A DNA stretch of 64,000 bases from Escherichia coli (GTDB lineage Bacteria; Pseudomonadota; Gammaproteobacteria; Enterobacterales; Enterobacteriaceae). The notes below the pieces were generated by a model. The model was not told the DNA's origin. It searched no databases and saw nothing but the letters and a program-made list of their open reading frames with translations. The position numbers and the translations under genes were made by a program. The stretch lies in NCBI RefSeq assembly GCF_045037415.1, contig NZ_CP173438.1. One strand, given 5' to 3'. Positions 2,912-40,469 of the stretch are shown piece after piece. The first letter of the stretch is position 1. Every line of letters begins with the position of its first letter.

Positions 2912-2922
2912 TCGCATTTTAT

Positions 2923-2943
2923 CTGCCTGTACGGCAGTGAACT
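2923..2943. repeat. Direct repeat copy 1 (21 bp, ctgcctgtacggcagtgaact) with internal palindrome CTGCC-N5-GGCAG
   Basis: Exact 21-bp match to copy 2, 60 bp downstream. Confidence 0.7.
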
Positions 2944-2982
2944 TGTCATTATTGGCAGACAGGATCCGCGGCAATTTCTAAG

Positions 2983-3003
2983 CTGCCTGTACGGCAGTGA
3001 ACT
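2983..3003. repeat. Direct repeat copy 2 (21 bp, ctgcctgtacggcagtgaact)
   Basis: Exact 21-bp match to copy 1. Confidence 0.7.
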
Positions 3004-9634: not shown

Positions 9635-10627
9635 ATGGTTAAATCGACGTCATGTATAACCATTGATTTCATGAATATGTCGCAGCTAACTGAACGGACC
9701 TTTACGCCATCTGAATCTCTCAGCAGCCTGTCACTTTTTCTTAGTCTGGCACGAGGACAGTGTCGGCCGGGTAAATTCTGGCATCGCCGTAGTTTTCGCC
9801 AGAAATTTTTGCTGCGCTCGTTGATTATGCCGCGTTTAAGCGTTGAGTGGATGAACGAACTTTCCCACTGGCCTAATCTCAATGTGTTGTTAACGCGCCA
9901 GCCGCGACTGCCTGTACGTCTACATCGCCCTTACCTTGCGGCGAATCTTAGCCGTAAGCAATTGCTGGAGGCGTTACGTTACCATTATGCGTTACTCCGC
10001 GGGTGTATGTCGGCGGAAGAATTCAGCTTATATTTGAATACCCCCGGGCTGCAACTGGCGAAGCTGGAAGGCAAAAACGGCGAGCAGTTCACGCTTGAGC
10101 TGACCATGATGATCTCAATGGATAAAGAAGGTGACAGCACCATCCTGTTCCGCAACAGCGAAGGTATTCCTCTGGCAGAGCTCACTTTTACCCTGTGTGA
10201 ATATCAGGGGAAAAGGACGATGTTTATTGGCGGACTGCAAGGCGCAAAATGGGAAATTCCACACCAGGAAATCCAGAATGCGACGAAAGCCTGCCACGGG
10301 CTATTTCCCAAACGCCTCGTGATGGAAGCGGCCTGTCTGTTTGCCCAACGTTTGCAGGTAGAGCAGATTATTGCCGTCAGCAATGAAACGCATATTTACC
10401 GCAGCCTGCGTTATCGCGATAAAGAAGGCAAGATCCATGCCGATTACAACGCTTTCTGGGAATCGGTTGGCGGCGTATGTGATGCTGAACGCCATTACCG
10501 CCTTCCAGCACAGATAGCACGAAAAGAGATTGCCGAAATCGCCAGTAAAAAACGGGCTGAATACCGTCGGCGCTATGAGATGCTCGACGCTATTCAGCCA
10601 CAAATGGCCACGATGTTTTGTAGTTAG
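9635..10627 (+). CDS. ybjX: VirK/DUF535-family protein YbjX
   Basis: 330-aa ORF, length and position match YbjX. Confidence 0.8.
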   Translation: MVKSTSCITIDFMNMSQLTERTFTPSESLSSLSLFLSLARGQCRPGKFWHRRSFRQKFLLRSLIMPRLSVEWMNELSHWPNLNVLLTRQPRLPVRLHRPYLAANLSRKQLLEALRYHYALLRGCMSAEEFSLYLNTPGLQLAKLEGKNGEQFTLELTMMISMDKEGDSTILFRNSEGIPLAELTFTLCEYQGKRTMFIGGLQGAKWEIPHQEIQNATKACHGLFPKRLVMEAACLFAQRLQVEQIIAVSNETHIYRSLRYRDKEGKIHADYNAFWESVGGVCDAERHYRLPAQIARKEIAEIASKKRAEYRRRYEMLDAIQPQMATMFCS

Positions 10628-12282
10628 TCGGCCCGACCGCGCGCCAGCCACAGCACGCGTGAGAACATTTTTTTCAGCAGCGTCGGTACGGAGTCCACAC
10701 CACGACGTCCGGCCTCCATTGCCACTTCAATGGCAAGATCGGGTTTGGAAGAGCGATGGATCGCTTTCGAGATAATTTTGCGCAGATTCATCGGTATATT
10801 TTCCGGGATTTGCGCCACGCGGTGGAACACATCGGAAAATCCCTGGCGATACATAAAATGTTCCATATCCAGCGCCGGTAACGCCGTTAAATGTTCTCGT
10901 TCGGCTTCCCGATCATTATTCAACAGGCTGCGTACCGTAGCGGCATATTTCTTCCCTGCTTCATCGCCATCGACCAGTACATGCCATTCAATCCCCATTC
11001 GCCGGGCAAATTTAACCAGTGGCTTTAGCCCGGACTGGGCAAACTCAATGACCTTGATCCCTTCGGCATCAAAATGATGTCCGCACTGACGCGCCAGTTC
11101 ATTGATAACCCAGGTTTCCGTTTCCCCTTCCACCAGCAGCCAACAACGGGCAAACAGCGATGACGGACGGTTAAAACGAATGTGAAAGGAGATGCGTCGG
11201 CTATCTTCGGTACTCAAGCCACTCGGTCCCAGACGCCAGGCGGCAACGCGAGAGGACTCACGTACCAGTCGGCAAACATGCTCTACCGGCGTTAACGAAA
11301 GCAACTCTCCCGAGTTGGTAGTAGCGATGCGCTGCAATGGCAGAAGGTTCAACAGATGCCAGGCAACTGAAAGCATAATGGGGTGCAAACGGGTTTCTGG
11401 ATCTTCGATCAGCAACAATGGACGGGCGTCTTTATCCAGTCGCAATGTGCCTTTTGCCTGCAACAAAGTAGCAAACAGGCCGAGCAAAATAACCCGATAC
11501 GAGCGCCCTCCAGGTCGGTCAATCATCCGGTTGATGATATCCAGATAGCGCCAGCTTCGTTGCTCATTGCTGGCTCGCCGCCGCATTAAACGATATCGCG
11601 CCTGTCCAGCTCCCTGCTCAGAAAAATAATGCTCAAGCAGTTGCACCATTGCGGAAAGTCCCTGACGAATCTGTCCATCAGAGAGATTTTGCGGATGTGA
11701 GGACAACTCACGGGCGAGGAAATCGAGCTGGCGCGCGGTGACTTCCACATTGGGGACATTTGGCACCGTGCCGTTACGAATACGGCGCATAAAACGGGCA
11801 TCACGCAAGCGCAGCACCGGCATTAAACGCACCAGATGACGAGCCTGATCGTTAATATCCTCAACATCAATCGGATGTCCGTCTTTATCGAGAAAACTGC
11901 GCAGTGTCATCACGCTGCCGTCTTCCGCACTCTCCCCTTCCAGACGATAAAAAATACGGTGATAACCATCGGTGCATGGCGTCCAGCACGCTTCCAGCGG
12001 CCGATAGCGGCGAACCCGATGTCGGCCTGGCAGCGATTCGCGGAAGGTCAAAATAATATGCAGATGATGTTCTCGCCCGTTGATATCTCCCGGCGGGAAC
12101 CAGAAATCATCGCGCTCAAAATGGTAGAGATCTGATTCTGGCGATAGCAGCAGGGTTAAGGCGTCCAGCAAGCTGGATTTACCCCACGCGTTCTCCCCAA
12201 TCAGGACGTTGTTTTGTTCCAGCATCAACGACAAACGGTTGATACCGCGAAAACCCACAATTTCAACGCGCTCAAGAATCAT
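10624..12282 (-). CDS. ybjD: OLD-family ATP-dependent endonuclease homolog (N-terminal ABC-like ATPase, C-terminal Toprim)
   Basis: 552-aa ORF; Walker A GENAWGKSS near the N-terminus; C-terminal LVEGETE ... VDGDEAG resembles the Toprim acidic signature. Confidence 0.85.
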   Translation of the reverse strand: MILERVEIVGFRGINRLSLMLEQNNVLIGENAWGKSSLLDALTLLLSPESDLYHFERDDFWFPPGDINGREHHLHIILTFRESLPGRHRVRRYRPLEACWTPCTDGYHRIFYRLEGESAEDGSVMTLRSFLDKDGHPIDVEDINDQARHLVRLMPVLRLRDARFMRRIRNGTVPNVPNVEVTARQLDFLARELSSHPQNLSDGQIRQGLSAMVQLLEHYFSEQGAGQARYRLMRRRASNEQRSWRYLDIINRMIDRPGGRSYRVILLGLFATLLQAKGTLRLDKDARPLLLIEDPETRLHPIMLSVAWHLLNLLPLQRIATTNSGELLSLTPVEHVCRLVRESSRVAAWRLGPSGLSTEDSRRISFHIRFNRPSSLFARCWLLVEGETETWVINELARQCGHHFDAEGIKVIEFAQSGLKPLVKFARRMGIEWHVLVDGDEAGKKYAATVRSLLNNDREAEREHLTALPALDMEHFMYRQGFSDVFHRVAQIPENIPMNLRKIISKAIHRSSKPDLAIEVAMEAGRRGVDSVPTLLKKMFSRVLWLARGRAD

Positions 12283-12706
12283 ATCCCCTCCAGAAATATG
12301 TGACTTATTCTTTACGCTGGCAGTATAACGGGAAAGGCCTGCTAATACGTGATGGCATCACATTTAAGCATGGCAAATGTCTGAAAAATGAGCGAATAAT
12401 CGCGTTATACTCCCTCTTGCTGATAAGCCTGCAAAAACAACAAAATCAAATAATTAGCATGATAAATTATTTTTTATTACGCCTAAAGGATTAAATCTTT
12501 CGCTTGCACTACACTGTCAATCAGACAAATGACTATATGGGGCAACCCGCTGTTGCCCTAAATCAAATTTACTGGATTTATTTATCTGGCGAATGATTTG
12601 CCTTCGTTTTTAAAATAGCCGCGCATTATTTCCGTCGTCACTTTTTTACGACGACCCTATAAAACGACCATATTTTTCACAGGGTCAATTTTTAATTGAG
12701 GTGGAT

Positions 12707-13402
12707 ATGTTCAGAAAATTAGCAGCTGAATGTTTTGGTACTTTCTGGCTTGTTTTTGGCGGCTGTGGTAGTGCCGTACTGGCCGCAGGCTTCCCGGAAT
12801 TAGGCATTGGTTTTGCCGGCGTGGCGTTGGCGTTCGGTCTGACCGTTCTGACAATGGCCTTTGCTGTTGGTCATATTTCTGGTGGTCATTTTAACCCGGC
12901 GGTCACTATTGGTTTATGGGCTGGCGGACGTTTCCCGGCAAAAGAAGTCGTTGGCTACGTAATTGCCCAGGTTGTCGGCGGTATTGTTGCGGCGGCGCTG
13001 CTGTATTTAATTGCCAGTGGTAAAACGGGTTTTGACGCGGCAGCCAGCGGTTTTGCTTCTAACGGTTATGGCGAGCATTCACCAGGCGGTTATTCCATGC
13101 TTTCCGCGCTGGTAGTTGAACTGGTATTGAGTGCAGGTTTCCTGCTGGTGATCCACGGCGCAACTGACAAATTCGCTCCTGCTGGTTTTGCGCCAATTGC
13201 CATTGGTCTGGCCTTAACCCTGATTCACTTAATCAGTATTCCGGTGACTAACACTTCCGTTAACCCGGCGCGCAGTACTGCGGTTGCTATCTTCCAGGGC
13301 GGCTGGGCATTAAAACAACTGTGGTTCTTCTGGGTGGTGCCAATTGTCGGCGGTATTATCGGTGGTCTGATTTACCGGACTCTACTGGAAAAGCGTAATT
13401 AA
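12707..13402 (+). CDS. aqpZ: Aquaporin Z
   Basis: ORF 12701..13402 (GTG); known N-terminus [15 protein letters not shown] at ATG 12707 with RBS gaggtgga; two NPA motifs ([14 protein letters not shown]). Confidence 0.92.
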
Positions 13403-40371: not shown

Positions 40372-40450
40372 GCCACTGCTTTTCTTTGATGTCCCCATTT
40401 TGTGGAGCCCATCAACCCCGCCATTTCGGTTCAAGGTTGATGGGTTTTTT
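40372..40450 (+). ncRNA. rybB: Hfq-dependent, sigma-E-controlled small RNA RybB
   Basis: gccactgcttttctttgatgtccccattttgtggagcccatcaaccccgccatttcggttcaaggttgatgggtttttt matches RybB as recalled; 3' terminator stem ccatcaacc/ggttgatgg plus T-run; in the ybjL-rcdA intergenic region. Confidence 0.85.
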
Positions 40451-40469
40451 GTTGCCTGAAATTTATCTA

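Follow-up and report, generated by a model that had tools for sequence, protein, structure and literature searches.

YbjD of Escherichia coli, an OLD-family protein encoded in the core genome with a predicted Class 2-like C-terminal half

The OLD (overcoming lysogenization defect) family of ATPase-Toprim proteins was defined with YbjD (b0876) of Escherichia coli as the query, and YbjD was assigned to Class 1, the isolated genes (Schiltz 2019; PMC6755086). In terms of gene context, members of Class 1 stand alone, without a UvrD-like helicase, a retron reverse transcriptase or non-coding RNA, or the split AriA/AriB arrangement (Schiltz 2019; Dot 2023), and this is also the context in which ybjD is found here. 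The substrates described for OLD proteins are DNA for TsOLD, Vc OLD and GajA, and tRNA for P2 Old. The present analysis concerns ybjD in a stretch of 64,000 nucleotides from E. coli contig NZ_CP173438.1 (assembly GCF_045037415.1), referred to as the window. The gene occupies positions 10624..12282 on the minus strand, as an open reading frame of 552 codons starting with ATG and followed by TAA; its sequence is identical to a RefSeq entry, which the PGAP pipeline names ybjD, 'ATP-dependent endonuclease'. The analysis shows that YbjD is an intact OLD-family enzyme, which joins an ABC-type ATPase head, with a predicted helical insert, to a Toprim nuclease domain of predicted activity. Within the Enterobacterales ybjD belongs to the core genome, is inherited vertically and is under strong constraint; orthologs occur in Vibrio and Aeromonas.

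The OLD identity of YbjD, its isolated context and its first phenotypes are already known, and some of the details presented here are new. The same alignment-based motifs and the ybjX/aqpZ context were described by Atahualpa 2026 (PMC13261556), who also detected ybjD expression by reverse transcription-quantitative PCR (RT-qPCR) and proposed the name oldB. What a first-pass annotation of the window, made from the letters alone, says of the gene is not new, being preceded by PMC6755086 (2019), PMC13261556 (2026) and the RefSeq product name. According to PMC13261556, the Keio knockout of ybjD has no phage phenotype across 68 BASEL phages, while arabinose-induced YbjD, at a non-toxic inducer level, lowers the plaquing of Bas18 and Bas20 and yields smaller plaques of Bas64-68. 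These over-expression phenotypes persist without the Toprim domain and require the ATPase domain (PMC13261556). Mutation of three putative catalytic acidic residues of the Toprim domain leaves the protective effect in place, and the K35A variant retains the anti-phage phenotype with greater toxicity; the toxicity of YbjD is independent of RecBC (PMC13261556). The published constructs, comprising residues 1-377 and 378-552, agree with the Pfam domain boundary found here. A Salmonella 'old' gene is reported, second-hand via PMC7049728, to be conditionally essential under temperature stress in a transposon screen. Elsewhere in the literature the region between aqpZ and ybjD serves as an insertion site, ybjD appears among genes modestly induced by a peptide derived from a cathelicidin (1.31 in the induced-gene table of that paper), and the gene name is also given to S024, a Gabija-like gene of SGI1. 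A literature search under DUF2813 returned no paper, and a search under b0876 returned Schiltz 2019 only.

The first-pass annotation had recognised an OLD architecture, a P-loop ATPase followed by a Toprim domain, from three motifs in the 552-residue product. The motifs GENAWGKSS, LVEGETE and VDGDEAG are indeed present at residues 29-37, 383-389 and 437-443, respectively, and the architecture is upheld by Pfam, PADLOC, sequence and profile searches of the Protein Data Bank (PDB) and structure comparison. Pfam assigns residues 1-375 to DUF2813 (E=3.5e-160) and residues 376-440 to OLD-like_TOPRIM (PF20469; E=7.8e-16), both far from chance level; a search against AAA and Toprim profiles had been proposed as a check. 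The first ~50 residues, around the P-loop, are also matched by AAA_15, AAA_29 and SMC_N. Among the PADLOC models those for GajA score best (8e-80), followed at a distance by the Old model (2e-24). NCBIfam holds no specific model for YbjD, the matches to its P-loop lying far below the cut-offs. A search of the PDB with the single sequence gave weak matches to GajA and TsOLD, and a profile built from 70 family sequences, with identities down to 27%, matched TsOLD across both domains (1e-21) and GajA (~1e-19). The full-length AlphaFold2 model (mean pLDDT 85.1, pTM 0.83) retrieves GajA (5e-19), TsOLD (1e-16) and the OLD protein of retron Eco8 (2.5e-14), with OLD-family structures alone at the top ranks; PtuA and SMC heads rank next and cover the ATPase half.

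The predicted YbjD subunit is built from the following segments, all encoded on the minus strand. The N-terminal lobe of the ATPase domain (residues 1-160; 11803..12282) is modelled with pLDDT values of mostly 85-97 and contains the Walker A motif or P-loop (GENAWGKSS; 12172..12198). It is followed by a helical insertion (residues ~161-285; 11428..11802) with predicted helices at 177-195, 202-220, 242-255 and 260-277, located between ATPase strands. The insertion is the least confident part of the model, in particular in the loops 162-176 and 222-242, and is presumed to act in dimerization by analogy with the insertion domains of TsOLD and GajA (PMC7049728, PMC10568477). The ATPase fold then resumes with the Walker B motif and D-loop, which form the segment L289-L-L-I-E293-D294-P-E296-T-R-L-H300-P301 (11380..11418), as placed by the profile alignment to TsOLD. 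The Toprim domain (residues 378-476; 10855..11151), delimited by PF20469 and the predicted secondary structure, carries EGETE at 385-389, within LVEGETE, and DGD at 438-440, within VDGDEAG. A C-terminal helical domain (residues 477-552; 10627..10854), with an invariant S512-K513-P514 motif, completes the subunit.

The catalytic map of YbjD is based on residues that were defined experimentally in TsOLD, BpOLD and P2 Old (PMC7049728), transferred through the profile alignment to TsOLD. In the ATPase domain, the P-loop lysine K35, the Walker B glutamate E293 and the D-loop histidine H300 correspond to K34, E276 and H283 of TsOLD; at the H-loop position, where TsOLD has H310, YbjD has N323 instead of a histidine. 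The putative metal A ligands E385, D438 and D440 are equivalent to E377, D431 and D433 of TsOLD and to E400, D455 and D457 of BpOLD. The putative metal B ligands E389, D472 and E474 are equivalent to D381, S478 and E480 of TsOLD and to E404, T506 and E508 of BpOLD. Within the 70-sequence family alignment E30, E385, G386, E387, E389, D440, E474, K513 and P514 are invariant, and G29, G34, H300, D438 and D472 are each conserved in 69 sequences. More variation is tolerated at the position of K35 (63 Lys and 6 Arg), at that of E293 (63 Glu and 5 Asp) and especially at that of N323 (42 Asn, 12 His and 10 Gln). Judged by residue pattern and invariance rather than by a residue-level superposition, the second metal site (E389, D472 and E474) appears to be present. 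No conserved motif resembling an ABC signature is observed in residues 160-285 of the 70 sequences. The Toprim core is the most conserved segment of the protein and the helical insertion the least, with a mean frequency of the top residue of 0.29.

Structurally, the two classes of OLD proteins differ in their C-terminal regions. Two elements of Class 2 enzymes, the Insert 3 helix and the C-terminal helical domain, are missing from TsOLD (Schiltz 2020; PMC7049728). The transition-state residue of Class 1 is an arginine or lysine seven residues past the metal B glutamate (R487 in TsOLD, K550 in P2 Old), whereas that of Class 2, K562, is provided by the helical domain (PMC7049728). None of the Class 1 features defined from TsOLD, i.e., absence of Insert 3, absence of the helical domain and a basic residue at +7, is found in YbjD as modelled. 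The +7 position is an invariant glycine (G481), and the nearby position 479 holds Arg or Lys in just 24 of the 70 sequences. The invariant lysine of the family is K513, which lies 39 residues downstream of the metal B glutamate in the S-K-P motif. A separate model of residues 368-552 (mean pLDDT 93.7) contains a predicted short helix (458-464) between α3 and β4 of the Toprim fold, and three long C-terminal helices; the predicted build is that of Class 2, with an Insert 3 helix and a lysine-bearing C-terminal helical domain. Superposition of this model on the Class 2 OLD protein of X. campestris (PDB entry 6njw) gives TM-scores of 0.76/0.68 over ~200 columns. Where a comparison with Class 1 structures had been proposed, the C-terminal half of YbjD in fact turns out, as modelled, to resemble Class 2 structures more closely than Class 1. 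From its invariance and its place in the predicted fold, we infer K513 to be the putative catalytic lysine, and the Class 2-like C-terminus nominates it as a residue of interest. The same likeness explains why the best PADLOC model is that of GajA, which aligns via its own C-terminus. YbjD is thus Class 1 by neighbourhood with a Class 2-like catalytic C-terminus, which indicates that OLD classes based on context map poorly onto structure; this nuance may be new.

A copy of ybjD that covers at least 80% of the query in one place is found in 5424 of 5426 complete E. coli genomes; all of these copies are full length, with a DNA identity that is always at least 95%. The window carries a minority allele, which is matched at ≥99% DNA identity in 589 of the 5424 genomes and at 95-99% in the others. 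In E. coli KA0011 (NZ_AP029163.1, 3221809-3224243) the gene is split by an IS1 insertion, visible as a match in two pieces around an 'IS1 family transposase'; this natural knockout confirms that ybjD is dispensable. Relatives of YbjD occur in at least 494 species-representative genomes, and the best 80 are full-length orthologs from Enterobacterales. Identities are 89-91% in Citrobacter and Salmonella, 86% in Klebsiella, 65% in Yersinia, 64% in Serratia and 56% in Proteus, and fall to 45% in Aeromonas and ~43% in Vibrio. Among the best 80 loci the block hcp-lysO-(aqpZ)-ybjD-(ybjX)-macA-macB is retained almost everywhere. The identity of ybjD parallels that of its neighbours, with values in Citrobacter of 95 for hcp, 86 for lysO, 90 for aqpZ, 91 for ybjD, 87 for macA and 89 for macB, against just 56% for ybjX. 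In Vibrio and Salinivibrio the orthologs stand alone in different housekeeping contexts. The published frequency of Class 1 OLD genes, 0.45% of genomes, is a DefenseFinder count, in which the YbjD family would not be included, given that YbjD occurs in essentially every E. coli and in many genera of Enterobacterales.

The surroundings of ybjD carry no signs of mobility. The RefSeq annotation lists housekeeping genes only, and no mobile elements, for 20 kb on each side; PADLOC finds no match for five neighbouring proteins, including YbjX; there are no flanking repeats, and the nearest tRNA gene is 7.7 kb away. The GC content of ybjD (0.530) and that at third codon positions (GC3, 0.548) are in line with those of the neighbouring genes. 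Recent horizontal acquisition is ruled out by this composition, by the synteny and by the lack of nearby tRNA genes, repeats and mobile genes. The initial statements on mobile-element signatures (none nearby), on context (no defence island) and on fixation in the core genome are therefore borne out, the last by the 5424 genomes and the order-wide synteny. The only phage relative of YbjD detected is P2 Old, with 27.8% identity over residues 252-440 (189 residues). Matches in the plasmid collection show a clear break: YbjD orthologs, at least 42% identical over their full length, are on chromosomes or chromids, whereas true plasmid OLD proteins are at most 35% identical over partial alignments. 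Each of the three plasmid relatives of which the context was examined adjoins an 'ATP-dependent helicase' gene and lies near integrase, recombinase or Abi genes. The patchy, mobile or island distribution that is expected of defence systems is not observed for ybjD.

The Class 2-like C-terminus raises the question whether YbjD is a Gabija-type nuclease that has lost its partner GajB and works in trans with a housekeeping SF1A helicase, such as UvrD or Rep, in genome maintenance or defence. This reading is considered improbable. No helicase gene adjoins ybjD or its relatives in the best 80 Enterobacterales loci, in Vibrio, in Salinivibrio or in three distant DUF2813 loci, and the Class 2-like C-terminus could be ancestral. 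Orphaned GajA proteins inside the DUF2813 clade were sought among relatives that match mainly the C-terminal half (P0221, P0213 and P0155), and rejected: all three consist of DUF2813 and Toprim and are encoded alone among metabolic genes. A wider kinship of the clade with Class 2 survives at the structural level only. A related, speculative scheme, which we regard as rather doubtful, sees in the DUF2813/YbjD clade a Gabija-type OLD nuclease that has been domesticated: an enzyme with the catalytic build of Class 2 would have lost its dedicated helicase, reached fixation in an ancestral lineage of the Enterobacterales, Vibrionales and Aeromonadales, and been kept since then for a cellular, Toprim-dependent nucleic-acid task, possibly together with a housekeeping SF1 helicase, the anti-phage effect being a by-product of the ATPase domain. 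Long relatives of 1188-1867 residues were considered as OLD-helicase fusions and rejected, as they are YbjD-like proteins of Anaerobiospirillum with large low-complexity insertions. In four long family members (P0162, P0175, P0149 and P0139; 630-1870 residues) the insertions, rich in Gln, Asn, Ser and Ala, are located inside the ATPase region and again past the Toprim core, ahead of the C-terminal helices, with both termini and all catalytic motifs retained; the form of 1187 residues is from Anaerobiospirillum.

Selection on ybjD was estimated by the method of Nei and Gojobori between the window and two genomes, E. albertii and L004, the latter labelled E. coli; comparisons beyond Escherichia are saturated, with dS >1. 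The dN/dS ratio of ybjD is 0.018 against L004 and 0.016 against E. albertii, and that of the neighbouring genes is 0.026-0.062. Residues 378-552, the Toprim and C-terminal half, have ratios of 0.016 and 0.012 in the two comparisons, and the ATPase half has 0.018 in both. The nuclease half is constrained at least as much as the ATPase half. The dS values of L004 against the window are high (0.47 for ybjD, 0.24-0.42 for the neighbours), and this GTDB representative of 'E. coli' is probably a member of a divergent lineage within Escherichia. These ratios bear on the notion that ybjD is a relic, left over from a former defence gene and now decaying or without function, to which its non-essentiality, the knockout without a reported phenotype and the IS1 insertion in one strain could point. 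Such decay is effectively ruled out by the dN/dS values of 0.016-0.018, and it is further opposed by the full-length presence in 5424 of 5426 genomes, by transcription as detected by RT-qPCR (PMC13261556) and by catalytic residues that are invariant across several gammaproteobacterial orders; we regard a relic as extremely improbable. The Toprim half is thus under constraint and yet dispensable for the sole published phenotype, from which we infer that the over-expression assay probably misses the selected function.

Why a member of a family of defence effectors remains a slowly evolving core gene throughout an entire order is a puzzle that can be tested at ybjD. The reading that we favour, with moderate confidence, is that YbjD is kept for a conserved cellular task in the surveillance or processing of nucleic acids that needs its nuclease, and that the anti-phage effect of over-expression is secondary. 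This preference is prompted by several points: ybjD is core and evolves at a rate like that of housekeeping genes, its nuclease is invariant yet dispensable for the published phenotype, the knockout has no phage phenotype, and there are the precedent of the archaeal protein Cran1 and the Salmonella report. In a possible mechanism, YbjD would assemble into an oligomer via the helical insertion and be restrained by nucleotide binding at K35, E293 and H300; loss of the nucleotide or a nucleic-acid cue would release the oligomer. The Toprim site might then nick or cut nucleic acid, with E385, D438 and D440 binding metal A, E389, D472 and E474 binding metal B, and K513 as the transition-state residue. 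Restraint by nucleotide would fit the higher toxicity of K35A and the precedent of GajA. The housekeeping or stress role suggested in the first-pass annotation would accord with the evolutionary data and with the lack of a phage phenotype in the knockout (PMC13261556); the anti-phage phenotypes of over-expression come from the same paper.

Several observations weigh against such a cellular task. All bacterial OLD proteins that have been characterised act as effectors in defence, and over-expressed YbjD restricts Bas18 and Bas20 and shrinks the plaques of Bas64-68 (PMC13261556). The searchable literature records no cellular phenotype for an E. coli ybjD mutant, the gene is non-essential and it is split by IS1 in one strain. 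The literature searched yielded no biochemical data on a nuclease or ATPase activity of YbjD, and the substrate may be DNA or RNA/tRNA. The catalytic role of K513 is a prediction from invariance and fold similarity. Strong purifying selection, finally, is also compatible with a long-lived defence gene.

That YbjD is a stand-alone Class 1 OLD anti-phage gene, fixed in the chromosome and expressed at a low level, is the reading of PMC13261556. It would sense a feature of particular phages and stop infection by toxicity that depends on the ATPase domain, by its nuclease, or by both. The reduced plaquing of Bas18 and Bas20 and the smaller Bas64-68 plaques at non-toxic induction, with the requirement for the ATPase domain (PMC13261556), argue for this, as do the defence functions of the characterised bacterial relatives P2 Old, Vc OLD, GajA, the retron Eco8 OLD protein and PARIS; the top PADLOC and structural matches are defence proteins as well. 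However, the knockout is phenotype-free on 68 phages, and protection needs neither the Toprim domain nor its three mutated acidic residues, even though these are invariant and lie in the half with the lowest dN/dS. Moreover, the distribution of ybjD runs counter to that of typical defence genes: it is core and syntenic, evolves at the rate of its housekeeping neighbours, lies in no island or near mobile genes, and has no copies on phages. A primary defence role is considered less likely than a cellular nucleic-acid task.

The genes that flank ybjD are those named in the first-pass annotation, as both the open reading frame list and RefSeq confirm, and the convergent overlap of the ybjD and ybjX stop codons that had been noted is exact. 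The wider gene order is macB-macA-ybjX-ybjD-aqpZ-lysO-hcp. The convergent neighbour ybjX, of the VirK/YbjX family, spans 9635..10627 on the plus strand; in RefSeq it starts at window position 9671, 36 nt later than the open reading frame start at 9635. The two genes share the 4-nt junction TTAG (10624..10627), which on the plus strand supplies both the TAA of ybjD (minus strand) and the TAG of ybjX (plus strand). A YTAR junction (TTAA, TTAG, CTAA or CTAG) is retained in 44 of the 58 Enterobacterales species that carry both genes, even in Serratia, where YbjX is just 49% identical. As there is no intergenic space, each transcript has to terminate within the opposite gene; terminator-like hairpins are found at 10568-10551 (minus strand) and 10927-10944 (plus strand). 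The pair is listed among the convergent excludons (overlapping transcript pairs) of E. coli by ExcludonFinder (PMC12288877). An obligatory pairing of the two genes is ruled out, since ybjX evolves much faster and is missing from several genera in which ybjD is retained, among them Klebsiella, Raoultella, Trabulsiella and Pectobacterium. Against E. albertii ybjX has the highest dN/dS of the block (0.062), and in most Citrobacter loci it is 54-59% identical (74% in one) versus 86-95% for the flanking genes.

On the other side of ybjD, aqpZ (12701-13402, plus strand) is divergently oriented. The intergenic region (12283..12700) is AT-rich, with a GC content of 0.376, and presumably contains the ybjD promoter. 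A Shine-Dalgarno sequence, GGAGG (12287-12291, minus strand), is located 4 nt upstream of the ATG. No LexA box is present in the 418-bp region upstream of ybjD, which speaks against SOS regulation, and a simple scan for the sigma-70 consensus, which says little, gave no match between ybjD and aqpZ.

Elsewhere in the window, a mini CRISPR array of two repeats and one spacer is observed at 2919-3002, between a tRNA-Ser gene (2784-2871) and clpA. The Rfam family CRISPR-DR4 matches 2975-3002 on the minus strand with 50 bits, and the second repeat core, ctgcctgtacggcagtgaac, lies ~56 nt upstream of this match, leaving a spacer of ~32 nt. The segment is found in 5333 of the 5426 E. coli genomes. Its identity there is mostly 80-90%, which points to spacers that vary while the repeats are conserved, and it is unannotated in the RefSeq rows listed. 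It is probably the orphan array of type I-F-like character that is known from the vicinity of clpA and infA. A full-length Rfam match (105 bits) places the small RNA RybB at 40375-40453 on the plus strand.

In comparison with the described systems, YbjD comes closest, by sequence profile, to the Class 1 reference TsOLD of Thermus scotoductus (PDB entry 6p74), which is likewise a stand-alone protein with an ABC ATPase, a helical insertion (predicted in YbjD) and a Toprim domain. TsOLD is the best profile match (E=1e-21, positions 2-441), and the Walker A lysine, the Walker B glutamate, the D-loop histidine and the acidic residues of metal sites A and B align between the two proteins. The Class 2 and Gabija structures, i.e., BpOLD of B. 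pseudomallei (6nk8), the X. campestris protein (6njw) and GajA from B. cereus (8sm3, 8u7i), are only 12-21% identical to YbjD. They differ further in context, as ybjD has no adjacent gene for a UvrD-like helicase (GajB) at the loci examined and is a core chromosomal rather than a mobile gene. P2 Old, the archetype of Class 1, shares with YbjD the stand-alone ATPase-Toprim organization and a D-x-E motif at metal B (D541/E543, with E402 as a further metal B residue). Unlike ybjD, it is borne by a prophage; it is triggered by inhibition of RecBCD, depends on its ATPase as well as its nuclease activity, and cleaves tRNA-Thr in the anticodon stem.

Vc OLD of Vibrio cholerae, of Class 1 (Patel and Seed 2025; PMC12392090), resembles YbjD as a stand-alone bacterial OLD protein that acts independently of RecBCD. 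It differs in being located on a phage-defence element, in protecting against several vibriophages, in being a DNA nickase and in being countered by a phage inhibitor; in addition, mutation of its conserved ATP-binding residues is reported to abolish defence (PMC13261556). The Vibrio orthologs of YbjD are distinct from Vc OLD, being DUF2813 proteins borne on the chromosome or a chromid. Cran1, an OLD ATPase of Sulfolobales with a helical insertion in its Toprim domain, as predicted for YbjD (PMC12796447), is like YbjD conserved within its lineage, apparently without a role in defence, and in both proteins the observed phenotype hinges on the ATPase and not on the nuclease. The two differ in that Cran1 is an essential protein tied to the cell cycle, whereas ybjD is dispensable.

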